A stretch of 60,948 bases of DNA, taken from the IMG/VR virus record IMGVR_UViG_3300048587_001148. One strand, 5' to 3'. The notes under the pieces are model-generated. The model was given only the letters and a program-made list of their open reading frames with translations. It had not been told where the DNA came from and did not search any database. The position numbers were made by a program, and so were the translations under genes. Positions 7,278-26,877 of the stretch are shown piece after piece (the stretch's first letter is position 1; each line of letters starts with the position of its first letter). Source of the stretch: an uncultured virus (IMG/VR IMGVR_UViG_3300048587_001148) (taxonomy: Duplodnaviria; Heunggongvirae; Uroviricota; Caudoviricetes).

Positions 7278-7321
7278 CTGTTGCTGGGCCGTTGCTGGGC
7301 TGCTGATGGTCTGCTGATGGC
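7278..7321. repeat. 4 x 11-bp imperfect tandem repeat
   Basis: CTGTTGCTGGG CCGTTGCTGGG CTGCTGATGGT CTGCTGATGGC in a divergent intergenic region. Confidence 0.7.
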
Positions 7322-7394
7322 CTGCCGAGCGCCTCCCGTAAACTCGCGCGACTGGATCTCGAGTGGCTCCTGTGCCTCTGGGGGTCCTCCGTGT

Positions 7395-7437
7395 TGCTGG
7401 CCCCCATTGCTGGTCCCCGTGCTGGTCCCCGTGCTGT
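7395..7437. repeat. about 3.5 x 12-13-bp tandem repeat
   Basis: TGCTGGTCCCCG-type units. Confidence 0.6.
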
Positions 7438-7643
7438 GCCGTCGTGTCTGCGCTCCCGCATGGGCTGTTCCCCCGCAGTTGGCGGGGTCGACCACCCCTC
7501 GCCATCTACTCCTGCGGAGTGTCGTGTCGGATATGGCCACTGGGGGCTTTCTCGCGGTCACTCCTCTCCACTGCTCCCTGCGCGCGCGCCTGGAGACACC
7601 ACTTGATGCACGCGTCCTCGGGCGCCATGACAAGGATCACCCA

Positions 7644-8372
7644 ATGAACATCGACCCGAAAGCCGAGATCTGTGGCCTCCCCTCCATGGTCGCACGCGCC
7701 CTGGCTCGCGAGGCGTGTGTAGGCGTCCTCACCGTCTCCCGTGCCACCGAGCTGGCGAACCTGGGGGATGCCGACATGGAGGGGGCGATCGCTGCGATGG
7801 TGGAAGCTGGGTACCTTGAGCTCGCCCCCGCCTCACAGTTCAGCCATGTTGATGCGTGGCTTCCAACTGAGCCCGGGCGAGAGCTCGCCCGGGCCTCGGC
7901 CGCCCGCCCTATCAGTCGCGCCAGCGCCCAGCGTGCCGTCACCGACCTCCTGGCTCGTGCCAGCGGCATCAACGCCGATGGAAACTTCCCCGCGTACGTC
8001 ACTCGCCTGGAGATCTTCGGGGGCTTTCTCGGTGACGCCGAGACGCTGTCCGAGGTGGAGGTCACGTACGAAACGGCGCTCCGCCCGGACATCGAAGCCC
8101 TCGGGGCGGACGCGGCGGAGGCGGTCACGCATGCACACATATCCGCCTCTGGTCGCCGCTTCGGCAATCTCACCGAGTACCTCACCTGGCCTCATGAGGA
8201 GGTGCGACTTGCCCTGAAGGCGGGAAAGCGCTCCATCGTCCTCGTGCCACCCCGCGCGATCCGCCACCTCGGGTGGCCAACCCGTACCGTCTTTGAGGCG
8301 GATCCTGCCACAATCGCCCCATACACCGGCCCGGGTCTGGCTGCCCTGCCGGCGCCGGCGCAGGTGATCTAG
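7644..8372 (+). CDS. Pol-beta-superfamily nucleotidyltransferase-like protein with degenerate motif
   Basis: VTRLEIFGGFL...LSEVEV matches the hFGSxL...GDxD pattern with substitutions; AAGGA before ATG. Confidence 0.5.
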   Translation: MNIDPKAEICGLPSMVARALAREACVGVLTVSRATELANLGDADMEGAIAAMVEAGYLELAPASQFSHVDAWLPTEPGRELARASAARPISRASAQRAVTDLLARASGINADGNFPAYVTRLEIFGGFLGDAETLSEVEVTYETALRPDIEALGADAAEAVTHAHISASGRRFGNLTEYLTWPHEEVRLALKAGKRSIVLVPPRAIRHLGWPTRTVFEADPATIAPYTGPGLAALPAPAQVI

Positions 8373-9318: not shown

Positions 9319-9324
9319 TATGGT
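9319..9324 (+). promoter_or_regulatory. -10 box TATGGT, leaderless start
   Basis: TATGGT-N6-ATG(9331). Confidence 0.6.
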
Positions 9325-9330: not shown

Positions 9331-10203
9331 ATGCCGAGCACTCAGTTGGATGTCTCGCCCTTCCCTGATGATGACACCCTTGGTCTCCCCCCATGGTGCC
9401 CGCGCGCGCCAGACATAATCCCGTTTGAGATCCGCGACCTCCTGGCCGACGCCGTGCATTTCGCCCCAACGCTTACGGCGGCTGGGCGTCGCCACATGCT
9501 CGCCTACGGGGGAGCGCAGGTTATCCTCGGGCGTGAACTTCGGGTCGCTGCCAGGGCGCCTCATCGGACGCGTGGCGCAACCGCGCTCGGTACGCGTTCG
9601 CATCTCACACATCTGATCCGAAAAACCAGACGCCGCCTGCAGATGGTGGTCTCGCACGAGGAGCTGTATGAGGCGATAGCGCGGGATGGTGACGTCCGTG
9701 CCAACAGTGTGATGTGCGAGTTCCTCGCGCAGCCGGGTATTGCCACGGCAATGCAGGCTCTCTGTAGTGCCCTGGTTCGCGCAGCCTTCGTCTGGCGGCT
9801 GGAATGGACTCAGCAGCCACCAAGGGATTGGTGGTGGCCAATGCTTGAGATGGTCACGGCCCAGTCCGAGGATTGGCCAATGGAGGTCTATCACCTCCCG
9901 GCCGCCTTCCTGCCTCCCCACGAGATTCTCCGCTTGGCGCCCATTCTTCTCCCGACCAGCGAATGGGCGGCAGCACGTCTCTCCCTCTGTGAGGGCGCCA
10001 GCCCAGAAGTGCTGGCCGAACTCTGTCGGCTCGCCCCCCCGCAGCGTGCCGGGCCGCTCCTGACCGTCCTACGGCACCGGCGCGATCTATCCACCATTGC
10101 TCCCGCCCTGATGCCCGCCCTGCTCGGGCACGCGAACCCCGAGATGGCTCGCTTCGGCCTGGAGCTCGCGACGGGTATGACGCAGGCCTCACGACCACGC
10201 TGA
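9331..10203 (+). CDS. unknown paralogue family, member 1 (FPDDD / LGHxxP)
   Basis: SPFPDDDTLGLPPWCPRAP, PTLTAAGRR, WWWP, LPAAFLP, LLGHANPEMARFGL shared with next three genes. Confidence 0.85.
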   Translation: MPSTQLDVSPFPDDDTLGLPPWCPRAPDIIPFEIRDLLADAVHFAPTLTAAGRRHMLAYGGAQVILGRELRVAARAPHRTRGATALGTRSHLTHLIRKTRRRLQMVVSHEELYEAIARDGDVRANSVMCEFLAQPGIATAMQALCSALVRAAFVWRLEWTQQPPRDWWWPMLEMVTAQSEDWPMEVYHLPAAFLPPHEILRLAPILLPTSEWAAARLSLCEGASPEVLAELCRLAPPQRAGPLLTVLRHRRDLSTIAPALMPALLGHANPEMARFGLELATGMTQASRPR

Positions 10204-10241
10204 AGTCGCGTATTTCAGCGGGCGAGCGGCAGAGGATCGGG

Positions 10242-10247
10242 TATGGT
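10242..10247 (+). promoter_or_regulatory. -10 box TATGGT, leaderless start
   Basis: TATGGT-N5-ATG(10253). Confidence 0.6.
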
Positions 10248-10252
10248 TGTCC

Positions 10253-11272
10253 ATGCCTGTCGACCCGCCTGTTTCCCTCTCTCCATTCCCTGATGACGAC
10301 AGCCTCGGCCTGCCCGAGTGGTGCCCGCGCGCCCCTGCATGCCTGCCGCCGCAGGACGGCGCGATGGAGGCGTTCTGGACCATGCTGGTCTCGGCGGCTC
10401 GCTCCCCCACGCTCACCGACGCCGGCCGCCGGTTCATGGCGGAGGGTCTCCTGGAGCGTCCGGGCCGCGGCAACGTGCTGGTGCCATACATTCCGCTTTT
10501 CACGGCGGCAGCCCGATCGGTGCCTCCCCTCCCGGCGCCAAGGGGTCTACCGGTCCGCCCGAAGCGGTCCTCAGCACGCGGGCTCACAGACGGGCGCCCC
10601 CGCGGGAGCGACACCACACTGGTGGGCATCGACGGCCTGTTGGCCCGCCTCACGCGTGAGCGACACACCGTCCTCCCTCGACGGAGCGAGGTGTTGCTGG
10701 CGCTCGAGCATGACATCGCGACCGGCAATGAATTCGGAGCCAGTGACAGCCTCGTCGCTTACCTTTCCCGCGCACGACCCCGCAGCGATCGTGCGTCGAA
10801 TATCCTCTCCCTGCTCGTCGGCGCGTCCTTCGCCTGCCGTCTGGAGTGGACGCGACGCCCCCCCGCTGACTGGTGGTGGCCGGTATTGACCAAGGTCTGC
10901 CAATCCATCTGGCCGGATGAGGCGCTGCCCGCACTCCCGGCGGCTTTCTTGCCCCCCGACGTCGTTGACGCCTTGGTGCGTAAACCCTCCACCCAGTGGC
11001 GCACCTTGCGCTCGCTCATGCTCACCCCGGCGATGACGCCAGAGCAACTCATGGTCATCATCGCGCACCCCGCTGCGCCGCATGGCGATCCCAAGAGTAC
11101 CTCGTATGACGATGGCCAGGTGATGGCGGATCTCTTGCGCTACCGCCGCGACCTGCCGACACTCGCGCCGCATCTCCTCCCGGTGCTGCTCGGTCACCCC
11201 TTGCCGGCGCTGGCCGCCGTCGGCCTCGAGGTGGCAACGCATGGGCGCCAGCTCGAGGCTCGTGGTGTGTGA
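10253..11272 (+). CDS. unknown paralogue family, member 2
   Basis: same motif blocks as member 1. Confidence 0.85.
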   Translation: MPVDPPVSLSPFPDDDSLGLPEWCPRAPACLPPQDGAMEAFWTMLVSAARSPTLTDAGRRFMAEGLLERPGRGNVLVPYIPLFTAAARSVPPLPAPRGLPVRPKRSSARGLTDGRPRGSDTTLVGIDGLLARLTRERHTVLPRRSEVLLALEHDIATGNEFGASDSLVAYLSRARPRSDRASNILSLLVGASFACRLEWTRRPPADWWWPVLTKVCQSIWPDEALPALPAAFLPPDVVDALVRKPSTQWRTLRSLMLTPAMTPEQLMVIIAHPAAPHGDPKSTSYDDGQVMADLLRYRRDLPTLAPHLLPVLLGHPLPALAAVGLEVATHGRQLEARGV

Positions 11273-11320
11273 TGTGACCCCATGCGAATGATCCACTGCG
11301 TGGCGGGACGGCGTCGGGAG

Positions 11321-11326
11321 TATGGT
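11321..11326 (+). promoter_or_regulatory. -10 box TATGGT, leaderless start
   Basis: TATGGT-N5-ATG(11332). Confidence 0.6.
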
Positions 11327-11331
11327 CCGGG

Positions 11332-12318
11332 ATGACCACGATTCCTGCTTTTGATGTATTGTCGCCGTTCCCCTCGCCATTTCCGGACGACGACACGCTG
11401 GGGCTCCCTGACTGGTGTCCCCGAGCGCCTGATCCCATCGGCGGGATCGCGGCTGTTCTCGCCGTCATCTTCTCCCCAACGCTGACCGTGGCTGGCCGTC
11501 GCTTCATGGCCCGGACGTTGGCCCACCAATCTGGGATCGGCGCATATCTGGTGTCCCTTCATCAGGCGCTCATGGTCGCGGACCGGGCCCAACGTCCCTT
11601 GCCGCCGCTCGTCGCGGTCCCGTGCAATACGGCCGAGCGCATCCTGCCGCCGGCGTACACGCAGGTCCCTTCGGCGACCAGAGCGATCATCCGCCGCGCC
11701 GAGGGTCGAGCCTTCCGGGACCTCTCGCCGGAGGAGGTCATGGATGCGATTGGTGCCGACCTGGTGGCCGATGAGGAGGTTGTGGCGAATGCGGTAGTCG
11801 TCCGCTATCTCGCACGACATGCGGATGCCAAATTTTCCTTGGGTGTCGCCGCCCCCCTGCTGCGCGCATCGTTCGCCTATCGTCTCCCCTGGACGCGGCA
11901 CGCACCAGACATCTGGTGGTGGCCGCTGCTGGAGTCACGGTTGGTCCACGACACCCTCGCCTCGCTCTTGTCCGTCCTGCCCGCGGCCTTCTTCCCTCCC
12001 GACGCCATGCTGCGGATCGTCCGGAAGGCTGGCCTGTCACCGATCACTCTCCGCGCGATCGCCCTCTCCCCATGGGCCACACCTGAGGTGCTGATTGAGG
12101 TGTGCCGGCAGACTCGCGTGCCTCCTCTGGACGCCACATCCCCGCCTGCGTTTCTTGGCGGCGGCACGCTCTCTAACATGCTCCGCTGCCGGCGTGATCT
12201 GAACACCCTCGCGCCACAGCTCCTCCCGGTGCTCCTGGGGCACCCGCATGGTGAGCTCGCGGCCCTCGGATTGGATCTCGCGACCACCGCACGCTGTCGC
12301 GGCCAATCCTTACTGTGA
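11332..12318 (+). CDS. unknown paralogue family, member 3
   Basis: same motif blocks as member 1. Confidence 0.85.
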   Translation: MTTIPAFDVLSPFPSPFPDDDTLGLPDWCPRAPDPIGGIAAVLAVIFSPTLTVAGRRFMARTLAHQSGIGAYLVSLHQALMVADRAQRPLPPLVAVPCNTAERILPPAYTQVPSATRAIIRRAEGRAFRDLSPEEVMDAIGADLVADEEVVANAVVVRYLARHADAKFSLGVAAPLLRASFAYRLPWTRHAPDIWWWPLLESRLVHDTLASLLSVLPAAFFPPDAMLRIVRKAGLSPITLRAIALSPWATPEVLIEVCRQTRVPPLDATSPPAFLGGGTLSNMLRCRRDLNTLAPQLLPVLLGHPHGELAALGLDLATTARCRGQSLL

Positions 12319-12397
12319 ACCTGCGATACGCCAATCGTCCCTCCTGGGTTAGACCCGGAGCGCGTTGTTGTATCGGGCCTGCCATCGGGTTGTCGTG

Positions 12398-12403
12398 TAT
12401 GGT
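12398..12403 (+). promoter_or_regulatory. -10 box TATGGT, leaderless start
   Basis: TATGGT-N5-ATG(12409). Confidence 0.6.
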
Positions 12404-12408
12404 GACGC

Positions 12409-13344
12409 ATGATTGCCTCCCCGCAGTGGCCAACCTCTCCCTTCCCTGATGACGACAGTCTGGGTTTGCCGGCCTGGTGCCCGCGGGCCCCCAACCCATG
12501 GCCTGAGCAGTCCCCTTCGCTGTCCCTGCTCCGTGCTGTGGCGCTCTCCCCAACGCTGACCAGGGCTGGCCGGCGTTTCATGTACCACTGGATGTCCCAA
12601 TTTCTCGTCTCTGGCACCGCCGCCCGCGCCTTCGAGGTTCTGGTATATCGCGCCTCGGGATATCGTCCAGCACCCCGGATTGGGCCTCCGCCCCCAGACG
12701 ATGCCGGGTCTGCGCTGCAGGCCTTATTGCGGAAGGCCAAACGCCGCTCGGATGGCCTGATGCACCTGGACGAAACCTGCACCGCCATCGACACCGATGT
12801 GAGCTCCGGTCGGGTCACGGCGATGGAGCAGGCGATGGTGCGCTTCTTTCGGGCAGCCCCCTTGAACTCGCCGGCGCGCCTGGCACAGGACATCAACACG
12901 ACACTCTTGGTGGAGCTCTCTTTTGTGTCCGATCTCCCATGGACCCAGGCCGCACCCGCGCAGTGGTGGTGGCCGACCCTGGATCGTCTGGCCCATCGGG
13001 TCTGGGGTGGCCGTATTCTCCCCCTGCTGCCCGCAGCCTTCCTGCCTCGAGAGCGCCTGGCGGCCATCATCGACGACCCCGAGATCGGCCCGGATGTCCT
13101 CGCGTACGCGCACTTGTGTCCTACAGCGGACCCGTCTCTGGTCGCCGCCTGCGTCGAGGGGCTCCGGGTAAGGCATTCTCCGGCGAGCGGGCCAGAGTTG
13201 CTCGCCACGCTCCGCGTGCGCCGAGACCTCCCCGCCTTGGCCCCCGTGCTGACACCGATCCTGTTGGGACACCCGGTGCCGCAGCTGGCAGCGCTCGGCC
13301 TCGAGTTGCTGGCCGGCCATCATCCCCCCGTTCCGACCCGATAG
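12409..13344 (+). CDS. unknown paralogue family, member 4
   Basis: same motif blocks as member 1. Confidence 0.85.
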   Translation: MIASPQWPTSPFPDDDSLGLPAWCPRAPNPWPEQSPSLSLLRAVALSPTLTRAGRRFMYHWMSQFLVSGTAARAFEVLVYRASGYRPAPRIGPPPPDDAGSALQALLRKAKRRSDGLMHLDETCTAIDTDVSSGRVTAMEQAMVRFFRAAPLNSPARLAQDINTTLLVELSFVSDLPWTQAAPAQWWWPTLDRLAHRVWGGRILPLLPAAFLPRERLAAIIDDPEIGPDVLAYAHLCPTADPSLVAACVEGLRVRHSPASGPELLATLRVRRDLPALAPVLTPILLGHPVPQLAALGLELLAGHHPPVPTR

Positions 13345-13432
13345 AGGTGGTGCTCCCGGGCGATCGGCTGGGCAAACCCGGGGCGAGGGTCCCATGATGT
13401 GAGATTCGGTGGCCAGGCCGTGACGGGGTGCT

Positions 13433-14320
13433 GTGTCGAAGGCAGCCAACGGCGTATGGTTCGAGTGTTACATGGTACACACCCCTGTTCGGGAGCGGAT
13501 GTCACGGATGCCTTCACCTGCCAAGGAACCTCTCGTCGCCGAAGCTGAGGCGCTTTACGCCGACTGGCTCCGCGGAGAGTGCTCACTCTTTTCCCCCGAA
13601 GAGGTCGCCGCGACCCCCTCCGTGCGTTTTCACGTCAAATTCCGCCGAGGGACCCCCGTCCTGGCCATGGGCATCACGATGGCCGAAGGATGTGAGACCT
13701 TTGTCGCGTACGATCAAGGGCATGCGCGCGACGCGGCGCATCTTGCCCTGCGACGCCTCCGCCAGCTGACACCCACCCTGCGTGTGGTCGCTGACGCCGT
13801 CGGTATGCGCGGCCGAGACTTTCAGGCGCCGCGGTGGATGACGGACTGCGCCATGCTCGGCGTCGTGGCCAGTTACGAGTCGGACTGGGCCGCCGCCTTG
13901 CTCCAGGAGTGTGTGGCACCGCTCATGGATCGCGCGATCGCCGCGACGGAACAGGATATCGCCCCGCACCTCGCATGGGGGGAGGGCACCACGGCGTTCA
14001 ACCGGGATGGGACGCGTGCCCATTTTACGCTGCCCCTCCTTCGCCAGCGTGACGGCGCGCCCATGGTCGAGTTGTCCCTCGAGGCGCACCTACAGCATGA
14101 CTCCACGCAACTCTTCGGCGCCAAGTTCGCACTCATCGCACGAACCCTCCCTGTGCATGTTCCTGTTGTCGGGGCGTGGCTGTGGCGTCGCCTGTTGGCG
14201 CACACGACCTCGATGGTGATTCCCATCCAGGACACGATCAAGGCGACCTCGCGGAACCCCTTGCGCGTGCTCTTGCGTTTCCCCGTCCTGGTGGCCAGCA
14301 TCGCAAGGCGCTTTCCGTGA
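13433..14320 (+). CDS. hypothetical protein; true start probably 13472-13508
   Basis: long ORF; TATGGT at 13455-13460 suggests a later start. Confidence 0.6.
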   Translation: MSKAANGVWFECYMVHTPVRERMSRMPSPAKEPLVAEAEALYADWLRGECSLFSPEEVAATPSVRFHVKFRRGTPVLAMGITMAEGCETFVAYDQGHARDAAHLALRRLRQLTPTLRVVADAVGMRGRDFQAPRWMTDCAMLGVVASYESDWAAALLQECVAPLMDRAIAATEQDIAPHLAWGEGTTAFNRDGTRAHFTLPLLRQRDGAPMVELSLEAHLQHDSTQLFGAKFALIARTLPVHVPVVGAWLWRRLLAHTTSMVIPIQDTIKATSRNPLRVLLRFPVLVASIARRFP

Positions 14321-14429
14321 AGAGCCTGATCGCCGCCGCTGCTGCTCAGGGGCAGGTGCTTCGAGCTTGCACTGGCGCGTCGCGTGAGGGTTGTCTCGCC
14401 AGCGCCGGCTACCCCATGGTGGAGTGGAT

Positions 14430-14503
14430 GGCCTCGTAGCTCAGGCGGTTAGAGCAGCGGACTCATAATCTGAAGGTCGGGTGTTCGACTCACCCCGGGG
14501 CCA
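14430..14503 (+). tRNA. tRNA-CAT (Ile2 or elongator Met)
   Basis: GGCCTCG/CGGGGCC acceptor stem, CT-CAT-AA loop, TTCGA T-loop. Confidence 0.85.
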
Positions 14504-14654
14504 TGGCTCCGCGCGTGACCATACGGTAGGAGCCCAGAGATTCTGCCACAGCAGCTCTCAGGGACTGGACGCAGCCTCGGCGGTCATACGCCGAGGTTGC
14601 GTCGTTTTGGGTGTGGCGACTCACATCCTCCGGCTCGCCTCCCCACGTGAACGT

Positions 14655-15961: not shown

Positions 15962-18900
15962 ATGACCTCCCCGTTTGACGCCCCCCTCCGTCCGCCGGAG
16001 CTGATCGTCCCCGGCCTGACGATGGCTGGTGTGCGATCCGCCCACTGGCCAGCTGGTCCCGCCGGTGACAGGGTGCTCGGGGAAGAGTGGCGGCAAGCAG
16101 CCCAGCCCCACGTACGCGGGCTCGCCGCCCATCGACCAGATCTCGCCGCCTGGCTGCGTCGCTGGGGGGCAGATGAGATGGTCCCGCTCGAGCCGCTCCA
16201 CCCCGGCCGCCCACCAGGCTTCCTGAAGGAGCCGTGGCCAGTCGACGCGGAGCTCCTACATTTCGAGGGGCGCCTCGGGGCAGAGCGTTTCGCCGAGGGC
16301 CTCCACGCCATCGCGCTCGAGGCGACGCGCATGACCCAGCACGTCTGTGCCCCCACGCTCTGGGTTGCCTTGGGCGGATTTGACCCTGACGGCGAACAGG
16401 CTGCCCTGTGGGTACCAGTGATACTGACGCATGAGGGGCGCGCGCTCGGCCTGCGCCTCGACCCCTACCAGCTCCCCCTCCGGGGCGCCCCGGGCGCACC
16501 ACCAGTCGCCCTCGAGCGGTCGGCATGGGAGGCGCTTCTGGCAGACCCCGAGGGCTGGCTGGCTGGCCGCGAGGCGCCAATCTATGCGACGGCCGTCTTG
16601 CAGGCCAGCGCGCCCACCTACCGCGCCTGGGAAGCCGTGGTCACCGGTGGCGGCCTGCCTCCGGCGGAGGAGATGCCACTCGTCGGCAGTCTTCTCGACA
16701 ACGCACCGATTCCCGTCGTCGGCCCCCGGCCGCCCTGGCCGGATGTGATCCGTGCCATCTGGATGCCAGAGCACTTGGATGCCAGCCAAGCTGAGGCCGT
16801 CTGGGCCAGTACCCGCGTCCCCATCTTGCGCGTGGTCGGACGCACCGGTCAGGGCGTCACGACCACCCTGGGCATGATCGCATGTCAGGCGCTGCGCCGC
16901 GGGGAGAGTGTCCGATGGTTGGTCCCAGACGGTGAAGCCGCACGGGCCGCGGAAGACCTCATCGACCGCCTGTTGGCCCCTGGCCCGACACCGAAGCCGG
17001 CCGCACTCGCTCCGGATCCCGTGTTTCGTCCCATGGCCCTCGTGGACCAGGCATGGGAAACGCTCCTGACCCAGCTGCGTCCGTGGTTCACCGCCCGCGG
17101 CGCTGGAGGAACGATCGCTGGCGGGGTCGCCGCTCTGTACGCGGCGCCCAGTATTGAGCGCCTCCCCATCCCTGAGGGGTGGGCACAGCATGTGAGTCCC
17201 GCCGCGGTCCGAGAGGCGCTGGATCGACTCGCCGCCTGGAGTGATCCGGCGCGTGCGGTGCCAGATGACTCGCCCTGGCGCGCATGTGAACGTCTCCCAC
17301 GGACCCCCCAGGCGCAGGCACTCGTGGACGACCTGCTGGCTCATGGCCGGGCGAGCTTGGTGGTCCTCCTCGAAGACAGCGCCGCCATCGAGGCGCACTG
17401 GGGCATCGAGCCCCCCACCGCCCTGGGGGAGCTCGAGGCCTGGCTCGAGCGGGTCCGCCATGCGGTCGCGTGCCCCTTCCCCGAGACCGCGCCGACCGTC
17501 AGTTGGTCGAACCGGCGCGTGGTGTTACAAACCGCGATGGAGCTGATGCAGGGCTGGCAGCCTGGGGCGCCCCCGCGGGCGCCGGAGGGCACCACCTGGC
17601 ATGCGGAGGCGACAGCCGCGGCACGCGCTACGCAGCGGGGGTGGGCCGGACGGCGCGATCGCAAGCAGCTGCTCGCCCGGTGGGGAGCCACGGGGGATGA
17701 CGCCGCCATCTGGGATACGTGGCGCCTGCGCGTGATGGGATGGGCCGCCTACGAGCGTGGCCTGGCGTATCGAGAGCACGCGGAGCCTGTCTTGACCCCG
17801 TCCTGGCCGCAGGACTGGGAATGGAGCCCGACCACGATCCGCCAATTGCTCCAGTGGATGACGATCGCCGAGAAGTGGTACGGCCCGGAGCGTCCCGAGT
17901 TCACGGCCGATCGATTCGTCCTCCCCCTCCCCGATGCCGACCAGCGCCTGGAACAGCTTGCCTTCGCCGTCACCACCATCCAGTACGTGATCGATCGCCT
18001 TGTCGTGACCGCGGGGGCCGCGGAGTCATGGCGCACGGCCGCCCCCCCAGAGATTGCCACCTGGCTGGATGCCCTCAGTGCACGTCGCGAGGATCTGGAG
18101 GCGCTGGCCACGGCGCACGATCAAAGAGCGGCCCTTGAGGATACGCTGGTCCGCCCCTTCGTGCCCGATCTCCTGGCCGGCACACTGACCCCCGAGGTTG
18201 TTGCGGAGCGCTTGCCCGGCACCGCCTGGGCAGCCTGGCTCGACTGGGCGATCGCACAGGACGCGTGGGAGGCCGGTCAGGGGGTGCAAGTGGAGCACGC
18301 GATGCGAGCTGTCGCCGGCGCCCTCGAGGGAATTGTAGCGCACGATGCGGCTCATCCGCCGCGGCGTGGCCGGCTGGAGATCTTGTTGGCCGGCAGTGCA
18401 CCCGCCGCCCTCCCCGAAGCCGTCGACACGCTCATCGTCCAAGACGACCTTCTGTTGACGGTCGGCCAGGTCGTGCCTTGGCTCCAGACCGCGGCACGAC
18501 TCTATACGGCCGGCGGTCGCGTCTTGGCGGCGCCGACAGAACTCGCCCTCGGAACGCGGCTGGGCGACGCCTTGGTGGCGCAGGGGGTGCCCGCGGTGAC
18601 ATTGCGGTGGCGACACCGCCCTGCCTCGACCCTGACGGGGGCGCTGCTGCATGCCCATGCCGCCACGGTGCAGTGGGTCCCCTTCGCGGATCAGGGCATG
18701 CATGCCGCCGGATGGCATGTCCTCCATGGCGACGCGCCGGCCATCGAGCGGATCCTGACCTGGTGTCGCCACGCCCCATGGCAACCCAATGTGCTCTTTG
18801 TCACCCCGACCGTGACCGATGCCATCGCGCTACGGACGCGTCTCTTGCAGGGCGACGCGGAAGGTCGCGCCTGGGGCGGCTGGAGCGCCACCGACGTCTA

Positions 18901-19528
18901 TCCTATCACGGCTCTGCCCGCCTTCGCCCCGTCGATCGTGGTGCTCGCCGGTGAGCCCGCCGCCTTCCTGGCCGCCTCCCCCGATGATCAGGCCCACCTG
19001 GCGACGGCCCTCCTGGAGGCCTCCCACCACGCGGTGGTCGTCAGCCCCCAGGATGTGGCCGCCGCGCTGGCCCTGACCGACGATCCGATGTGTCTCCCCG
19101 TCCTGCGTGATTTCTGGCGCGTCGTCCTGCAGGGCCGTCTCGAGCATGCCCGCGGGCCCGAATGGCAGGGCGCGCTCTGCCGTCGATTTGCCTCCGCAGA
19201 CCGGTGGGGCGATCGCGGCCGCGGTGGAGGCGACGGAGCCCCGGTGGTTGCTGTCGGATGGTGGCGAGAGCCCGACCGCTACCGTGTCGCCGTCATGGGC
19301 TACACCGACGGCTGGGATGCGGGCGACCGCCTGCATGACCGCACCCTTATCGTGCCACACTTACTCAAGCGCCACGGCTGGCAGCAGGCATGGTGGTGGC
19401 CCCTGGATCATCTACGTGAGCCCCATCGCGCCGAAGACCGCCTGCTGGGGCATCTTGGGCTCTCCGGCCGCACGCCCCCGCCGGCGCAGCCGGAAGAGCG
19501 TGACCTACCCCGCGACGGTGTCACCTAA
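15962..19528 (+). CDS. degenerate DUF4011 / SF1 helicase / Vsr-like (Hhe-type architecture) protein
   Basis: TLWVALG...LWVPVIL (DUF4011-like); LDASQAEAV then GRTGQGVTT (Walker A lacking Lys); C-terminal RLHDRT...KRHGW...WPLDH resembles the REase/Vsr tail. Confidence 0.6.
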   Translation: MTSPFDAPLRPPELIVPGLTMAGVRSAHWPAGPAGDRVLGEEWRQAAQPHVRGLAAHRPDLAAWLRRWGADEMVPLEPLHPGRPPGFLKEPWPVDAELLHFEGRLGAERFAEGLHAIALEATRMTQHVCAPTLWVALGGFDPDGEQAALWVPVILTHEGRALGLRLDPYQLPLRGAPGAPPVALERSAWEALLADPEGWLAGREAPIYATAVLQASAPTYRAWEAVVTGGGLPPAEEMPLVGSLLDNAPIPVVGPRPPWPDVIRAIWMPEHLDASQAEAVWASTRVPILRVVGRTGQGVTTTLGMIACQALRRGESVRWLVPDGEAARAAEDLIDRLLAPGPTPKPAALAPDPVFRPMALVDQAWETLLTQLRPWFTARGAGGTIAGGVAALYAAPSIERLPIPEGWAQHVSPAAVREALDRLAAWSDPARAVPDDSPWRACERLPRTPQAQALVDDLLAHGRASLVVLLEDSAAIEAHWGIEPPTALGELEAWLERVRHAVACPFPETAPTVSWSNRRVVLQTAMELMQGWQPGAPPRAPEGTTWHAEATAAARATQRGWAGRRDRKQLLARWGATGDDAAIWDTWRLRVMGWAAYERGLAYREHAEPVLTPSWPQDWEWSPTTIRQLLQWMTIAEKWYGPERPEFTADRFVLPLPDADQRLEQLAFAVTTIQYVIDRLVVTAGAAESWRTAAPPEIATWLDALSARREDLEALATAHDQRAALEDTLVRPFVPDLLAGTLTPEVVAERLPGTAWAAWLDWAIAQDAWEAGQGVQVEHAMRAVAGALEGIVAHDAAHPPRRGRLEILLAGSAPAALPEAVDTLIVQDDLLLTVGQVVPWLQTAARLYTAGGRVLAAPTELALGTRLGDALVAQGVPAVTLRWRHRPASTLTGALLHAHAATVQWVPFADQGMHAAGWHVLHGDAPAIERILTWCRHAPWQPNVLFVTPTVTDAIALRTRLLQGDAEGRAWGGWSATDVYPITALPAFAPSIVVLAGEPAAFLAASPDDQAHLATALLEASHHAVVVSPQDVAAALALTDDPMCLPVLRDFWRVVLQGRLEHARGPEWQGALCRRFASADRWGDRGRGGGDGAPVVAVGWWREPDRYRVAVMGYTDGWDAGDRLHDRTLIVPHLLKRHGWQQAWWWPLDHLREPHRAEDRLLGHLGLSGRTPPPAQPEERDLPRDGVT

Positions 19529-21672: not shown

Positions 21673-21746
21673 GGGGGCGTAGCTCAGTCGGTTAGAGTGC
21701 GGCACTGTCACTGCCGAGGTCGCGAGTTCGAATCTCGTCGCTCCCG
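21673..21746 (+). tRNA. tRNA-Asp(GTC)
   Basis: cloverleaf; CT-GTC-AC loop; G73. Confidence 0.95.
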
Positions 21747-21767
21747 CTGTTTGTATGTCACACATAA

Positions 21768-21841
21768 GGCTCTGTAGCTCAGTCTGGTAGAGCACGCGGT
21801 TGAAGCCCGCGGTGCCGCAGGTTCGATTCCTGCCGGAGCCA
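21768..21841 (+). tRNA. tRNA-Phe(GAA)
   Basis: cloverleaf; TT-GAA-GC loop. Confidence 0.93.
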
Positions 21842-21842
21842 C

Positions 21843-21916
21843 TGCTGGATAGCTCAGGTGGTCAGAGCACCGGACTCATAACCCGGGGGCCGCTGGTTCG
21901 ACTCCAGCTCCAGCAA
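21843..21916 (+). tRNA. tRNA-CAT (elongator Met or Ile2)
   Basis: cloverleaf; CT-CAT-AA loop; paired 1:72. Confidence 0.88.
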
Positions 21917-21921
21917 TACGA

Positions 21922-21995
21922 TGGGGTGTAGCTCAGGTGGTGAGAGCGCAGTCCTGATAAGACTGAGGCCGATGGTTCAACTCCATCCACCCCAA
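21922..21995 (+). tRNA. tRNA-Ile(GAT)
   Basis: cloverleaf; CT-GAT-AA loop. Confidence 0.93.
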
Positions 21996-22029
21996 TAGTG
22001 TACAAAATCAATCTGAGGCACAGTAAGCC

Positions 22030-22100
22030 GTGGCGGTAGCTCAATGGATAGAGCACCGGGGGCACCTGGACGGATGGGCGTTCGACTCGCCTTCGTCACG
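22030..22100 (+). ncRNA. tRNA-like RNA with GGCA tetraloop replacing the anticodon loop
   Basis: acceptor GTGGCGG/TCGTCAC, D-arm AGCTCAATGGATAGAGC, T-loop TTCGACT, stem CCGGG-GGCA-CCTGG. Confidence 0.7.
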
Positions 22101-22148
22101 GCAGCGCAGCAGGAGAAGCGGCATCGCAGGGTGCCGCAGTGGAGAACT

Positions 22149-22220
22149 GCGAAGGTAGCTCAGAAGGCAGAGTCCCCCACTGGCGATGGGGAGGTGAGCT
22201 CTCGACTCGCCCTCTTCGCA
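22149..22220 (+). pseudogene. degenerate tRNA (GGC anticodon, aberrant T arm)
   Basis: acceptor GCGAAGG/TCTTCGC, D arm, CCCCA-CTGGCGA-TGGGG; no GTTC and no G3:U70. Confidence 0.6.
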
Positions 22221-22229
22221 GCGATGTAT

Positions 22230-22303
22230 GTCCGCATAGCTCAGCTGGTCAGAGCGTCGGCCTGTTAAGCCGAATGTCCTTGGTTCGAATCCAAGTGCGG
22301 ACG
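22230..22303 (+). tRNA. tRNA-Asn(GTT)
   Basis: cloverleaf; CT-GTT-AA; G73; G1:C72. Confidence 0.93.
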
Positions 22304-22330
22304 CTGAAGATCGGGAAGTGGAACAGGCAG

Positions 22331-22403
22331 GCCTCGCTAGCTCAACTGGCAGAGCAGCTCCCTCTTAAGGAGACGGTTCCAGGTTCGATTCCTGGGCGTG
22401 GCA
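22331..22403 (+). tRNA. tRNA-Lys(CTT)
   Basis: cloverleaf; CT-CTT-AA. Confidence 0.9.
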
Positions 22404-22407
22404 TCAT

Positions 22408-22480
22408 GCGGACGGAGCTCGGCTGGCAGAGCGTCGGCTTCCCAAGCCGAGGGCCGCGGGTTCGAATCCCGCCGTTCGCT
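22408..22480 (+). tRNA. tRNA-Gly(CCC)
   Basis: cloverleaf; TT-CCC-AA; U73. Confidence 0.88.
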
Positions 22481-22575
22481 TGCAATCCCCACGCACCGTG
22501 GAGCCAGTCACGGAGCGGGTTTGCGCGTGGAGGGCTTGGAGGGAAACCTTCGTCGTGATGACGAGGGGAACACAT

Positions 22576-22650
22576 GGTGATCGTAGCTCAGCCGGTTAGA
22601 GCGCCGCTCTGTGGCAGCGGAGGTCGCGGGTTCGAAGCCCGTCGGTCACC
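22576..22650 (+). tRNA. tRNA-His(GTG)
   Basis: cloverleaf; encoded G-1 and C73. Confidence 0.95.
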
Positions 22651-22730
22651 CTGAAGGAGGACGTCTGGGAGGCGCCCATCGACGCCGGCTTCGTGCGAAG
22701 GACGTTGATGGGCCCGACCTCGCTGAGGAG

Positions 22731-22815
22731 GGATAGGTGGCCGAGTGGTCTATGGCGGCGGTCTTGAAAACCGCAGGCTCGCAAGGGTCCGTGGGTTCGA
22801 ATCCCACCCTATCCG
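22731..22815 (+). tRNA. tRNA-Ser(TGA)
   Basis: type II cloverleaf; G73. Confidence 0.95.
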
Positions 22816-22825
22816 CTGTGTCTAC

Positions 22826-22910
22826 GGTTCGGTGGCCGAGTGGCTAAAGGCAGCAGACTGTAAATCTGCCGGGCGCAAGCCCTACGTAGGTTCGAATCCT
22901 ACCCGCACCA
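22826..22910 (+). tRNA. tRNA-Tyr(GTA)
   Basis: type II cloverleaf; CT-GTA-AA. Confidence 0.93.
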
Positions 22911-22930
22911 TCCCCGTGCCCCCCCCCTAT

Positions 22931-23003
22931 GCTCGCGTAGCTCAGTCGGCAGAGTACATCCTTGGTAAGGATGAGGTCATCGGTTCGATCCCGATCGCGA
23001 GCT
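22931..23003 (+). tRNA. tRNA-Thr(GGT)
   Basis: cloverleaf; TT-GGT-AA. Confidence 0.95.
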
Positions 23004-23043
23004 CTTCCAGGCGTCACGGTGGCGCCATGGACTTCCGGTACCT

Positions 23044-23129
23044 GCATTCGTGGCGAAACTGGTAGACGCACCAGCTTGAGGGGCTGGCGCTCCTCACCGA
23101 GCATCCCGGTTCGAGTCCGGGCGGATGCA
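23044..23129 (+). tRNA. tRNA-Leu(GAG)
   Basis: type II cloverleaf; A73. Confidence 0.93.
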
Positions 23130-23134
23130 CTTCT

Positions 23135-23207
23135 GCGGGCATAGCTCAGTTGGTAGAGCGCGACCTTGCCAAGGTCGAGGCCGCGAGTTCGAGTCTCGCT
23201 GTCCGCT
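23135..23207 (+). tRNA. tRNA-Gly(GCC)
   Basis: cloverleaf; TT-GCC-AA. Confidence 0.95.
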
Positions 23208-23235
23208 TGCTGTGCTGTAGTGTGGCGTTGTCTTT

Positions 23236-23307
23236 GGCGCGTTCGTCTATCGGTCAGGACATGACCCTCTCAAGGTCAAGAGGCGAGTTCGATTCTCGCA
23301 CGCGCTG
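23236..23307 (+). tRNA. tRNA-Glu(CTC)
   Basis: cloverleaf; CT-CTC-AA. Confidence 0.92.
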
Positions 23308-23348
23308 TGCTTGTTGGGCGGCCCACATCTCGGGTCGCCATGCTCCAT

Positions 23349-23421
23349 GTCGCCATCGTCTAGTGGCCTAGGACACGACCCTTTCAAGGTTGGAACACGG
23401 GTTCGATCCCCGTTGGCGACG
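23349..23421 (+). tRNA. tRNA-Glu(TTC)
   Basis: cloverleaf; CT-TTC-AA. Confidence 0.93.
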
Positions 23422-23444
23422 TTCCCTTGCCCTCCCCACCTTAT

Positions 23445-24787
23445 CGGTGGCGCCGTAAACCCCTGCCTTCAGGTATGGGGATATAAGGCGCCCGCAACGA
23501 AGACCTAATGTGTAACGTATTTCCCATGTCAGCCGCCCGGTAGGTGCGGGGGTGAATGAGCATTCGAGAATCGACACCAGGCGGGTTCCCGTGAGACGTA
23601 GCTATCTGTACAAGGCACGGCTGACACCCCGGATCGCGGATGCGGCCCGGGGACAGCTGGCCCTATGCTGTGAACTCTACAATGCCTGTCTGCAGGAGCG
23701 TCGCGATCACTGGCAGCAACGCGGCGTGTCGATTACAGCGAACCAACAGAAAGCACAACTACCCGCGATCAAGCAGGTGCGTCCGGACGTCGCATCTGTC
23801 GGGTCACAGGTACTGCAAGACGTGGTCGAGCGAGTCGATCGCGCCTTCCAGGCGTTCTTCCGTCGAGTCAAGGCCGGAGAAAAGCCCGGATACCCGCGGT
23901 TCAAATCGCGGCGTCACTATAACTCGCTCACCTTCAAGCAGTGCGGCTGGAAGCTCGGCCCTCGCTCAGGGAGCGGTCGCAAACGCACCCTCACCCTCCA
24001 CGGCATTGGGACTCTCACGCTCTTCTGGTCGCGCGAGCTCGAGGGTGCCGTGAAGACCGTCACGCTCCGTCGCGATCGATGCGGCGATTGGTGGGTGAGT
24101 TTCTCATGCGACGGCGTCGCAGCCAATCCCCTGCCCGCCACCGGTTCGCACGTCGGGATCGATCTCGGACTCGAAGCATTCCTCACCACGAGCAATGGCG
24201 AGCGCCTCGAGAATCGACGGCCCCTGCGCCGTGCCAGTGCTGGTATCCGCAAGGCGCAGCGCGTGGTCAGCAAGCGCACCCGCGGCGGGGGGCGCCGCCG
24301 CAAGGCCGTGCGTCGTCTCGCGGTGCGGCACCGCAAGGTTGAGCGCATTCGCCGTGACTGGCATCACCAGGTGGCACACCGTCTCGTGCGTCACCACGAC
24401 GTGCTGGCGGTGGAAGAGCTGAATATCGTGGGACTCCAGCGCGGGATGCTGGCGAAGAGTGTTGGCGACGTAGCATGGGGACAATTTCTCCAGATCCTGG
24501 GCGACAAGGCTGCAAGCGCCGGTCGACTCCTGATCACGGTGGACCCCCGTGGCACCAGCCAGCAGTGCAGTGCGTGTGGCGCCATGCCGGCGACACCGAA
24601 GTCGCTCGGCACACGTGACCATCAATGCGACTGTGGATACGTCGCGCACCGCGATCTTAACGCGGGGCGCAACATTCTGCAGCGCGCCCAACGAATGGGT
24701 CGGGCAGACCCTTCAGCGAGCTGGCCGGCCCACAAGGCAGCAGCGTAGACCTGAGAATCCCCTGGTTTTAGTCATGGGGGGTGTCAA
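23445..24787 (+). mobile_element. IS200/IS605-family TnpB-only (IS1341-type) element
   Basis: TTAT (23441-23444) then left-end hairpin AAACCCCTGCCTTCAGGTATGGGG; right-end hairpin GAATCCCCTGGTTTTAGTCATGGGGG ending in TCAA; no tnpA in window. Confidence 0.85.
23552..24748 (+). CDS. tnpB: RNA-guided endonuclease TnpB (start may be GTG 23591)
   Basis: GIDLG (RuvC-I), VEEL (RuvC-II), CSAC...CDC zinc ribbon, HRDLNAGRNI (RuvC-III). Confidence 0.95.
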   Translation: MNEHSRIDTRRVPVRRSYLYKARLTPRIADAARGQLALCCELYNACLQERRDHWQQRGVSITANQQKAQLPAIKQVRPDVASVGSQVLQDVVERVDRAFQAFFRRVKAGEKPGYPRFKSRRHYNSLTFKQCGWKLGPRSGSGRKRTLTLHGIGTLTLFWSRELEGAVKTVTLRRDRCGDWWVSFSCDGVAANPLPATGSHVGIDLGLEAFLTTSNGERLENRRPLRRASAGIRKAQRVVSKRTRGGGRRRKAVRRLAVRHRKVERIRRDWHHQVAHRLVRHHDVLAVEELNIVGLQRGMLAKSVGDVAWGQFLQILGDKAASAGRLLITVDPRGTSQQCSACGAMPATPKSLGTRDHQCDCGYVAHRDLNAGRNILQRAQRMGRADPSASWPAHKAAA

Positions 24788-25091
24788 GCAACGGTGGCGG
24801 GAGACCTGCCGTATACCCATTGAACTGAAGGAGTCCTGAATGGTGTCTCGCGCATTGACGCGAATGTTCCGCTCGCTGGGTCGCCGCATGGTGCGTACGC
24901 TCGGTGAGGGCGATCCCCGTCGGATTCCCATGTCACATGGTCCAGGCTTCCCTGTGGTACACAGCGGTAGCCTGACGGTGATCCAGGGGGGCAGCGGAAT
25001 GTTGGATGAGCACTTCCGCGCGAGTCATGAGACCTCTGGGAACGAACTGTCGGAATGAACGCCTCGATCAGCGGGGCCTGAGGAGCATCGG

Positions 25092-25910
25092 ATGCGTGCC
25101 CGCGACATGATTGAGGAATTGGTGCAGACGACCGGCGCGCCGCGGGGAGGGCGCGTGTCCCACCTGCTGCGGTGGTTTCCTGAGGCACGCACCCAAGACG
25201 TTGCCGGGCGCGCCGGAGTGACAGGCACCAACGTGTTGCTCGGGGACTCGGCGCCACTGGTGCTCCTGGGGGCGCATCATGACATTCACCCCGGCACGCG
25301 AGAGGGTGCCACGGACAATACGGCGGCTGTCGGCGTGCTCGCGGCCTGCGCGATGCGCTGGCGAGAGGCCGGCGTCTGGCCCGCGGGTCTCGGGATCGCT
25401 TTCTGGGACATGGAAGAACCGGCGAATGGAACTTTCGCTGCTGGCTCCTCGGCGCATGCGCGAGCGCTACGCGCTGCTGGGGTGACTCCACAGTTGATCG
25501 TCGCCTGTGATGTCTTCGGTCTGGGGGTGCCGTTCCTCTCCACCACCTCGAGCTGGCGGGCCGGCGAGCTCTTGCGGTTACAATCCACGCGCGCCGGCTT
25601 CCCCCTGCCGGAGGTGGCGACACCAGGAAGTGACGATGCCGGGTTCCGGCGGATGGGCTTTGAGGCGGCCCTTTTGACCACACTCCCGGCCGATGGCAGT
25701 ACGCGGGCGTGGCGGGCCATGCACACGACGGCCGACACGACGGCGCTGATTGACTGGGCTGCTCTTGAAGGTGTCGAGGCGTTCGTGGCCTCCATTGCAG
25801 CCCTCCCGGTCACGGGAGAGATGGTGCGTGAAGTGGATGCTGCGCGACAGCTCACGCTCCAGAGGGGCCGGTCACCGCTGGGGGCACTGGAGCAATTGCC
25901 GCTCTGGTGA
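25092..25910 (+). CDS. M28-family metallopeptidase
   Basis: GAHHD, GATDN, DMEE, SDD, MHT..DT motifs. Confidence 0.8.
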   Translation: MRARDMIEELVQTTGAPRGGRVSHLLRWFPEARTQDVAGRAGVTGTNVLLGDSAPLVLLGAHHDIHPGTREGATDNTAAVGVLAACAMRWREAGVWPAGLGIAFWDMEEPANGTFAAGSSAHARALRAAGVTPQLIVACDVFGLGVPFLSTTSSWRAGELLRLQSTRAGFPLPEVATPGSDDAGFRRMGFEAALLTTLPADGSTRAWRAMHTTADTTALIDWAALEGVEAFVASIAALPVTGEMVREVDAARQLTLQRGRSPLGALEQLPLW

Positions 25911-25954
25911 CACGAAATGTTCGCGCGTGAATACCCGTCCTGTGCATGACTATC

Positions 25955-26034
25955 GCGAGCGTGGCGGAATGGCAGACGCACCAGACTTAGGATCTGGCGG
26001 GTTTCCCGTGGGGGTTCGAGTCCCCCCGTTCGCA
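25955..26034 (+). tRNA. tRNA-Leu(TAG)
   Basis: type II cloverleaf; CT-TAG-GA. Confidence 0.93.
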
Positions 26035-26051
26035 CTGTGGTAAGTGTTTGC

Positions 26052-26363: not shown

Positions 26364-26466
26364 TTGTGGCACCCCGCGCACCGCGGGTTCATCGGCGTCT
26401 GTGCGCCTGTCGTTCCTTCCCCACGCGTCGGTTCTCCGACTCGGCAACCTACAGGAGGTAGTAATC

Positions 26467-26793: not shown

Positions 26794-26860
26794 TGTAGGC
26801 GAGCAAGCATTGACAAGGCTGGTGGCACAAGGGGAGTTGGCCGCGTGCCACATGGCCATG

Positions 26861-26866: not shown

Positions 26867-26877
26867 CATCAACACGT

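Follow-up and report, generated by a model that had tools for sequence, protein, structure and literature searches.

Four adjacent genes in a 60,948-nt stretch of DNA (called the window here) encode members of a new, previously undescribed protein family that is predicted to be all-helical and that appears confined to one genome, where it comprises ~15 deeply diverged paralogues. The explanation that we favour as a whole, with a confidence slightly better than even, is that of an orphan family of ~15 paralogues in a probable huge phage of ~610 kb, with leaderless genes whose products are probable binding scaffolds.

An array of old paralogues

The preliminary description of this DNA took the four genes to be paralogues, and this is borne out by the alignment (MAFFT), in which the products of genes 2–4 are 40, 43 and 38% identical to the first protein, and by tblastn comparisons of copy against copy within the array (E 1e-31 to 1e-49). 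The five sequence blocks that had been listed are all invariant or nearly so in 4/4 proteins (Table 1), and the N-terminal motif is also present in each of the four distant paralogues that have an N-terminus (P0009, P0012, P0014 and P0020). The GC content at the three codon positions of the four genes (~0.70–0.72/0.53–0.56/0.72–0.80) resembles that of the window's other genes, and the gaps between array genes amount to 49–97 nt.

Table 1. Positions of array genes, upstream boxes and conserved protein blocks.
Feature	Position	Strand	Details
Gene 1 (P0001, 290 aa)	9331-10203	+	ORF, MAFFT, tblastn
Gene 2 (P0002, 339 aa)	10253-11272	+	ORF, MAFFT, tblastn
Gene 3 (P0003, 328 aa)	11332-12318	+	ORF, MAFFT
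Gene 4 (P0004, 311 aa)	12409-13344	+	ORF, MAFFT, tblastn
Next gene, outside the family	13472-14320		ATG at 13472; hhalign against family profile, probability 0.1%
TATGGT -10-like box, gene 1	9319..9324	+	6 nt before ATG
TATGGT -10-like box, gene 2	10242..10247	+	5 nt before ATG
TATGGT -10-like box, gene 3	11321..11326	+	5 nt before ATG
TATGGT -10-like box, gene 4	12398..12403	+	5 nt before ATG
Fifth TATGGT	13455..13460	+	11 nt before ATG at 13472, non-family gene
Block 1	S9-P27		SPFPDDDxLGLPxWCPRAP
Block 2	P46-R54		PTLTxAGRR
Block 3	L157-L172		LxWTxxxPxxWWWPxL
Block 4	L189-P195		LPAAFxP
Block 5	L247-H267		LRxRRDLxxxAPxLxPxLLGH

Judged from the sequence, the four ATGs are the true starts: the N-terminal motif that recurs in distant paralogues follows directly after each ATG, and the ORF of gene 4 cannot extend further 5' because an in-frame TGA (12403–12405) overlaps the last base of its box, 4 nt (12405–12409) before the ATG. 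A full-length public call from the same ATG exists for gene 3, while the public calls for the other genes cover only residues 105–290 of gene 1 (P0006), the last 216 aa of gene 2 (P0021) and residues 58–311 of gene 4 (P0005): standard gene callers cut the conserved N-terminal motif from three of the four genes because leaderless starts are not modelled.

Synonymous sites are saturated between copies (pS 0.63–0.70), with the conserved blocks likewise saturated (pS 0.59–0.70), and hence the copies are old; the duplications are old and under purifying selection. A hypervariable middle had been proposed for these proteins: the divergence is present but is not confined to the middle, as several segments diverge, with the indel-richest segment at approximately residues 61–90 of gene 1 being modelled at low confidence (pLDDT 54–66). 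The interpretation of such segments as variable specificity regions is not supported, with no diversifying selection detectable within a test that is limited by saturation: dN/dS is 0.51–0.71 in the variable columns, and in a strain variant of gene 2 that differs at 13 of 191 residues, 8 of the 13 changes are conservative. A dN/dS below 1 in the variable segments also lends no positive support to partner-driven diversification.

Start signals of the array genes

TATGGT 5–6 nt ahead of every array ATG, as claimed in the preliminary description, was confirmed by direct reading. Alignment of the four upstream regions revealed nine columns that are invariant in all of them, namely the hexamer and the ATG, and no other conserved column; because the rest of the upstream sequence is unconserved and synonymous sites are saturated, TATGGT has been kept by selection and not by recent duplication. 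Across the window there are 8 instances of the layout TATGGT-N5/6-ATG, vs ~0.5 expected. TATGGT-N5-RTG is found 6 times (0.18 expected; 0/100 shuffles reach 6) and TATGGT-N6-RTG twice (0.30 expected; 4/100 shuffles reach 2), with one of these two matches inside an 11-bp tandem repeat at 46048–46137; the hexamer alone occurs 23 times, vs 8.5 expected. The layout also opens coding-like ORFs at 7211(-), 38844(-) and 45049(-), an RNA ligase gene has the box in front, and the variants TATGAT and TACAAT open ORFs at 45941(-) and 52253(-). Thus, the suggestion that each gene has its own leaderless promoter stands as far as the individual -10-like box is concerned, its spacing fitting a leaderless mRNA, but such a box is not special to the array: because other genes start with TATGGT too, the layout would be the genome's general leaderless -10. 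Just after the box, genes 1 and 4 continue with GGGG or GA, which creates weak anti-Shine-Dalgarno complementarity (GGTG).

No -35 element was found upstream of the four genes, and no terminators or terminator-like hairpins between the array genes; read-through transcription is therefore possible, and the earlier assignment of independent transcripts is not supported. We infer that the four genes are transcribed leaderless: a sigma-70-type RNA polymerase acting on TATGGT would start at or beside the A of the ATG, the resulting leaderless mRNA would be translated by 70S ribosomes without a Shine-Dalgarno site, and this would be a general mode for many genes of this genome that is not array-specific. 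The leaderless -10 layout itself is already described in Deinococcus-Thermus: according to the passages of PMC12340547 dealing with the motif, TANNNT precedes about a third of the ORFs of Deinococcus radiodurans by ~6–7 bp and acts as the -10 for leaderless mRNAs.

Predicted structure

The AlphaFold (AF2) model of the gene 1 protein is all-alpha (pLDDT 85.6, pTM 0.83), as is a second AF2 model from a different subfamily (pLDDT 85.8, pTM 0.81). Each model was scanned structurally against 48,161 PDB chains, and in both scans the 50 matches listed are nearly all of HEAT/ARM type, including importin-beta, TOG domains, the PP2A A subunit, condensin HEAT subunits, AP complexes, alphaRep and YibA; the Z scores among the matches listed are 5.1–7.0 for the gene 1 model and 5.6–7.4 for the second, with values of Z<8 possibly meaning a mere common helical arrangement. 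The ESM Atlas yielded LRV/HEAT leads only (scores 0.77–0.84), Foldseek found no match in PDB or BFVD at E<=0.001, and Pfam HEAT, HEAT_2, Arm and LRV gave no match at E<=10 in 13/13 members. Comparison of the family profile with itself produced no off-diagonal match and hence no internal sequence repeat; the C-terminal block LLPxLLGHxxPxLAAxGLELA presumably resembles a HEAT hairpin.

Each copy is predicted to be a soluble all-alpha protein of ~300 aa. The invariant extended N-terminal peptide FPDDDxLGLPxWCP, which in the gene 1 model has no regular secondary structure at a pLDDT of 92–95, probably packs on the protein body; it is predicted to be followed by a pair of helices and then by a linker that is poorly ordered, rich in arginine and proline and prone to indels, with the last ~200 residues forming stacked helix hairpins in the manner of a HEAT/ARM solenoid.

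Distribution of the family

An exhaustive profile search at E<=0.001 amongst 1,835,955,588 representative proteins returned 15 matches, every one of which derives either from a single metagenome contig of 609,694 bp or from short contigs with close variants. Among the best four, three are incomplete (truncated or partial) versions of three genes of the window, and one is a 93% identical variant of gene 2 (P0008, from a 957-bp contig); the remaining 11, or their cluster mates of at least 90% identity, are recorded on the 609,694-bp contig, and the window's own products are likewise recorded on a contig of this length. No relatives were found in IMG/VR and JGI metagenome contigs, in a phage collection (tblastn, E<=1), among plasmids (blastn) or over the full length of two huge-phage records. 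The four proteins match nothing in Pfam, NCBIfam, PHROG, PADLOC (including its defence-related models) or PDB sequences, and Pfam at E<=10 gave a single row for the 13 members searched (E 0.13, in one member). The earlier description, in which divergent segments interrupt a conserved scaffold and no domain is recognisable, is supported.

The carrier element and alternative explanations

A large-phage setting fits the surroundings of the array: the window contains 40 tRNA genes covering 19 amino acids within 17 kb, the array lying 8 kb from a cluster of 39, and the tRNA region has HNH and TnpB genes inserted in it and adjoins two phage-type RNA ligases. PHROG hits accompany this set of genes, which consists of the Rnl1-like and PHA02142-type ligases, the HNH endonuclease, a tRNA-methyltransferase-like gene and a DUF2201/AAA pair; the ligases are best matched by two uncultured phages (484 kb and 635 kb) and by jumbo phages. 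Published huge phages carry up to 67 tRNAs and genes for tRNA ligation, as outlined in the sections of PMC7162821 on these genomes. The carrier, a ~610-kb, 66% GC element, is most likely a huge phage (>200 kb) or megaphage, or else another giant extrachromosomal element. An unlikely alternative, although one with some weight, is that it belongs to a high-GC bacterium not yet sampled, perhaps from a lineage rich in leaderless genes, as a chromosomal segment or a megaplasmid, and that the family is a lineage-specific cellular multigene family. The window contains no virion, terminase or replication gene and no phage structural or packaging gene, the source contig did not turn up in the IMG/VR scan, the window encodes proteins of cellular type (ABC transporter, adenylate kinase, SpoIID, NlpC/P60, hexapeptide transferase, M28 peptidase and TnpB), and a leaderless -10 layout is the kind of feature expected of hosts. 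Against a cellular origin, however, the combination of tRNA genes, HNH/TnpB and RNA ligases is typical of very large phages, 33 of the 55 window ORFs scanned are without a Pfam match, and no relative of the family was found among 185,579 species genomes.

It is also conceivable, if quite improbable, that TATGGT has a different job, perhaps as a regulatory site or an atypical ribosome-binding site, and that the four genes form one operon read from an upstream promoter. The short gaps, the lack of hairpins between the genes and of a detected -35 element would suit an operon, and in 4 of the 7 cases in which TATGGT precedes a gene start the next letters are G(G/A), the resulting GGTG being able to base-pair with the 3' end of 16S rRNA. 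The invariant positions are nevertheless T-A-T...T, the signature of a -10 hexamer, rather than the G-rich part, genes 2 and 3 display no purine-rich stretch between box and ATG, and other window genes have conventional, normally spaced GGAG-type sites; moreover, the equivalent Deinococcus motif binds the sigma factor and cannot be replaced by an RBS (PMC12340547, passages on this motif). Finally, we regard as very improbable that the proteins are enzymes in which the invariant Cys (WCPR) and His (LLGH) together with the Asp in RRDL, or else the DDD cluster, would make up a catalytic triad or metal site, assembled by packing of the N-terminal peptide on the helical body. His267 is invariant in 13/13 sequences, Asp252 nearly so, and Cys23 is retained in 8/8 sequences with an N-terminus, being the sole cysteine of P0020; the confidently modelled peptide devoid of secondary structure would also agree with such a site. 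On the other hand, Gln replaces Asp in P0012, the fold is all-alpha with structural neighbours that, among those listed, are nearly all non-catalytic repeat scaffolds, and no enzyme family was matched in Pfam, NCBIfam or PDB sequences.

Proposed role and significance

The preferred reading, that of leaderless genes on a probable huge phage, would have these proteins act as probably non-catalytic binding scaffolds: the conserved core would hold the common fold, and perhaps a common partner, with the diverged surfaces binding different partners during infection. The host-takeover or anti-defence effector role and the early timing put forward in the preliminary description are points that we can only infer. 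A bolder version, which we consider rather unlikely, envisages a huge phage with ~15 diverged, separately promoted alpha-solenoid binders that share an invariant N-terminal docking peptide and whose differing surfaces would seize or inactivate a range of host targets, among them defence proteins or components of the translation apparatus that is encoded close by. If true, this repertoire would be the bacterial-virus counterpart of the ankyrin-repeat host-range families, the multigene repeat-protein binders of poxviruses and giant viruses. Should the favoured explanation be right, it adds a new family with a confident predicted fold and without sequence relatives outside one giant element, and a case in which paralogues have multiplied within a huge phage; the fixed TATGGT box would be usable for re-annotating starts across this genome.

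Comparison with known systems

The start layout corresponds to that of leaderless Deinococcus-Thermus genes, in as far as the relevant parts of PMC12340547 and PMC4007540 describe it: TAnnnT 5–6 nt before the ATG, here with neither -35 nor Shine-Dalgarno site, and starts that callers tend to miss, just as three of the four array genes are recorded only in truncated form. Unlike TANNNT, the box is here one fixed word, TATGGT, usually after a G, and it was read from sequence on a probable huge phage. The translation-related clusters of huge phages, in the sections of Al-Shayeb et al. 2020 (PMC7162821) devoted to them, are matched by the tRNA cluster, RNA ligases and tRNA-methyltransferase-like gene near the array, although the family itself was not found in the two huge-phage records or the phage collection.

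With respect to fold, the last ~200 residues of both models superpose on HEAT/ARM solenoids (rmsd 4–6 Å over 160–214 aligned residues, Z 5–7.4), a similarity that lies within the range of chance helical resemblance and holds at the level of fold class only. In contrast to HEAT/ARM/LRV proteins, the family shows no sequence match and no detectable internal repeat, and its invariant N-terminal peptide and WWWP turn are without counterpart in HEAT/ARM proteins. The ankyrin-repeat families differ in belonging to another fold family, in the bacterial host expected here and in partner-recruiting domains such as the F-box, which were not seen in our proteins; what would be shared is a large viral-type genome with numerous diverged paralogues, some of them in tandem, and a helical-repeat fold with no catalytic signature.

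The four paralogues and their relationship

The tandem array comprises four open reading frames on the + strand (see the table of features), whose products exhibit 40, 43 and 38% identity to the gene 1 product (genes 2, 3 and 4, respectively; MAFFT alignment) and which find each other by tblastn with E-values of 1e-31 to 1e-49. The five sequence blocks reported in the preliminary description are all present, each being invariant or near-invariant across the four aligned proteins. The products are near neutral (pI 5.7–9.5) and abundant in Arg, Ala, Leu, Pro and Trp, whilst GC content by codon position (approximately 0.71/0.54/0.76) is like that of the other genes of this 66% GC window. By tblastn, genes 1–4 are the only family members in the window; two neighbouring regions considered as hidden members, 7281–8372 and 13472–14320, were rejected at hhalign probabilities of 0.4% and 0.1%, and the antisense ORF at 11877–13208, though long, was dismissed as the usual high-GC shadow. 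We regard this anatomy of the family and array as highly probable. Base skews are marked across the array (GC skew -0.07 to -0.09 and AT skew -0.16 to -0.18 at 10001–14000) and exceed those of most of the window.

Features of the window, with coordinates, strand and basis of assignment
Feature	Coordinates	Strand	Basis or remark
Gene 1	9331-10203	+	290 aa ORF
Gene 2	10253-11272	+	339 aa ORF
Gene 3	11332-12318	+	328 aa ORF
Gene 4	12409-13344	+	311 aa ORF
TnpB/OrfB_IS605-like gene	23552-24748		interrupts tRNA cluster
M28 peptidase	25092-25910		interrupts tRNA cluster
HNH endonuclease	29268-30122		interrupts tRNA cluster
T4 Rnl1-like RNA ligase	37648-38943	-	family match
tRNA-methyltransferase-like gene	46824-47558		family match
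PHA02142-type RNA ligase with OB fold	48346-49506	-	family match
DUF2201_N metallopeptidase-like gene adjoining AAA_5 (MoxR-type) ATPase	56882-59798	-	
ORF start behind a TATGGT box	7211	-	TANNNT scan
Inner start of Rnl1-like RNA ligase behind a TATGGT box	38844	-	TANNNT scan
ORF start behind a TATGGT box	45049	-	TANNNT scan
ORF start behind a TATGAT box	45941	-	TANNNT scan
ORF start behind a TACAAT box	52253	-	TANNNT scan

Nei-Gojobori counts were made on a codon alignment of the four genes, comparing the 72 most conserved columns with the 282 others. Synonymous differences were saturated in every gene pair (pS 0.63–0.70), pN was 0.14–0.22 in the conserved columns and 0.49–0.63 in the others, and nominal dN/dS, at these saturated synonymous sites, was 0.09–0.22 and 0.51–0.71, respectively. 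In a maximum-likelihood tree of 13 members the terminal branches are long (median 0.97), only three groups are supported and genes 1–4 form a single clade in none of 200 bootstrap trees; a strain variant of gene 2 (P0008) shows 13 differences from it over 191 positions, of which 8 are conservative. Taken together, these values show that the copies are old and that purifying selection acts on them, relaxed in some segments. The adaptive hypervariability that had been read into the divergent segments is not borne out by the dN/dS of the variable columns, which gave no sign of diversifying selection, saturation leaving the comparison without the power to see or exclude it.

Distribution of the family

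The four proteins matched nothing in Pfam and NCBIfam at E≤1, nor in PHROGs or PADLOC, and relaxing the Pfam threshold to E≤10 for 13 members gave PF23666 as sole match, with one member at E 0.13. A family profile found no relative among PDB sequences, the single row returned (a cycloisomerase, E 0.2) being judged noise. A word-indexed search of 5.8 billion proteins recovered no more than two calls, both truncated versions of genes in the window. An exhaustive HMMER search of 1,835,955,588 representative proteins with the four-sequence profile returned 15 at E≤0.001: of the top four, three correspond to as many window genes in truncated or partial form and one is a variant 93% identical to gene 2, with distinct paralogues or fragments making up the remaining eleven (P0009–P0019). 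These eleven, or their cluster mates at ≥90% (P0020, P0022), are recorded on a 609,694-bp contig, as are the window's own products, and from this shared record we infer a single contig of that size carrying about 15 paralogues. Near-identical variants lie on short contigs of 957–2,889 bp. Public names of the matches are 'hypothetical protein' or nothing. No further relative was found in 185,579 species genomes, in IMG/VR or in JGI metagenome contigs (scanned with two family alignments), and no relative at all among plasmids by blastn or 50,697 phage records by tblastn at E≤1; a search of two whole huge-phage genomes was likewise empty, a result that shows nothing since it had no positive control.

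Predicted structure

AlphaFold2 models built with the family alignment are confident and all-alpha for both the gene 1 product (15 helices; pLDDT 85.6, pTM 0.83) and the distant paralogue P0009 (pLDDT 85.8, pTM 0.81). The invariant N-terminal peptide is modelled at pLDDT 92–95 without regular secondary structure, and residues 61–90 of gene 1, richest in indels, at pLDDT 54–66. Foldseek returned nothing from PDB or BFVD at E≤0.001. Full alignment of both models against 48,161 PDB chains listed nearly exclusively HEAT/ARM-type solenoids, including importin-beta, Kap95, TOG domains, the PP2A A subunit, HEAT subunits of condensin and AP complexes, alphaRep and YibA, at Z 5.1–7.0 (gene 1) and 5.6–7.4 (P0009), covering the last ~200 residues and hardly the N-terminal ~65. 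By the tool's calibration, this likeness of the predicted models is a resemblance of fold class only. No internal sequence repeat was detectable in the family, and ESM Atlas gave LRV/HEAT leads that were weak only.

Genomic setting

The window encodes 40 tRNA genes on the + strand, one at 14429–14504 and 39 within 9.5 kb (21673–31144), which cover 19 amino acids, with no tRNA-Gln in the window. The two RNA ligases and the tRNA-methyltransferase-like gene look like a tRNA-repair set, and the best matches of the PHA02142-type ligase belong to uncultured phages (484 kb and 635 kb) and to jumbo phages of Brevundimonas and Caulobacter. The DUF2201_N/AAA_5 pair is found in N4-like and jumbo phages as well (PHROGs 1314, 1297). 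Further genes encode NT5C, an Mg-chelatase-like ATPase, adenylate kinase, SpoIID, NlpC/P60 and an ABC transporter, and 33 of the 55 ORFs scanned lack a Pfam match. A 1188 aa protein (15962–19528, +) matches nSTAND NTPase 5 only below threshold (25.9 bits, cut-off 34) and PADLOC PDC-S37 weakly; nothing related to it was found in the phage collection. As clues to the host, the ABC transporter (partial matches of only 29–35% to Duganella and Streptomyces) and the tRNA array (scattered phage tRNA matches by blastn) were uninformative.

TATGGT boxes and start sites

TATGGT precedes the ATG of gene 1 (9331) by 6 nt and those of genes 2–4 (10253, 11332, 12409) by 5 nt. In the window, the arrangement TATGGT-N5-RTG is found at 6 sites (0.18 expected), a count reached in none of 100 shuffles, TATGGT-N6-RTG at two (0.30 expected) and bare TATGGT at 23 (8.5 expected). 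One of the two N6 matches falls inside a tandem repeat at 46048–46137, where 8.2 copies of the 11-bp unit GCTCATGGTGC yield a spurious TATGGT-N6-ATG at 46095. A scan for TANNNT lying 5–7 nt ahead of the start codon in ORFs that look coding and span 80 codons or more gave 12 sites: genes 1–4, the five starts tabulated and three that, in our judgement, look internal to longer ORFs. The gene immediately downstream of the array (ATG 13472) has TATGGT 11 nt upstream. Judged from the sequence, the putative promoter box is thus a feature of the whole genome and not specific to the array. Translation of the Rnl1-like ligase (- strand) could begin at ATG 38943, which follows a GAGAGG ribosome site, or at ATG 38844, which follows TATGGT-N5; the gene may have two promoters or yield two forms of the enzyme.

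Upstream alignment of the four genes shows conservation of the hexamer and ATG and of no other column, and no two-hexamer sigma-70 promoter was found. Other window genes have ordinary GGAG-type ribosome sites, so that two modes of initiation would be in use in this genome. A literature search joining TATGGT with leaderless returned no relevant paper.

Interpretation

The preliminary description, whose observations hold and whose interpretation is supported in part, took the array to encode early effectors of host takeover or anti-defence, with variable specificity regions on a conserved scaffold. The scaffold is supported by the shared blocks, a -10 box for each gene by box position and enrichment, the lack of a known domain by the profile searches, and the phage-like setting by the tRNA cluster and the RNA ligases close to those of huge and jumbo phages; early timing, adaptive hypervariability and an effector role gained no such support. 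The most likely reading is that the family consists of genome-specific, non-catalytic alpha-solenoid binding proteins, each copy being expressed as a leaderless mRNA (one starting at or next to the start codon), although a binding function as such is a tentative proposal that we consider rather doubtful. The rival to a non-catalytic protein is an enzyme in which the invariant Cys, His and Asp residues would be the functional ones; the listed structural neighbours of the models are nearly all solenoids.

A rival to separate leaderless transcripts is co-transcription of the four genes, with TATGGT serving in another role: no terminator-like hairpins were found between genes 1–4, so that read-through transcription is possible. 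As to the source of the element, a cellular origin has to be weighed, no virion genes having been seen in the window; judged by the tRNA cluster, the RNA ligases and other window genes, it most likely comes from a huge phage.

Leaderless expression would also account for the state of the public records, in which only gene 3 of the four is full-length. The calls for genes 1, 2 and 4 (P0006, P0021 and P0005) begin at inner Met or Val codons, with 186, 216 and 254 aa in place of 290, 339 and 311 aa, and have lost the conserved N-terminal motif, the putatively leaderless ATG having been passed over; a longer form of gene 4 is excluded by an in-frame TGA 4 nt before its ATG. Six distant paralogues (P0010, P0011, P0013, P0015, P0016 and P0022) look likewise truncated. 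According to PMC12340547, about a third of the ORFs of Deinococcus radiodurans have TANNNT ~6–7 bp ahead of them; experiments showed that this motif serves leaderless mRNAs as a classical -10 region, and it causes mis-annotation of start codons (for leaderless genes with this ORF-adjacent motif, see also PMC4007540). The layout in the window matches the ORF-adjacent -10 motif of D. radiodurans, and the mis-annotation of starts known from that species recurs for genes 1, 2 and 4.
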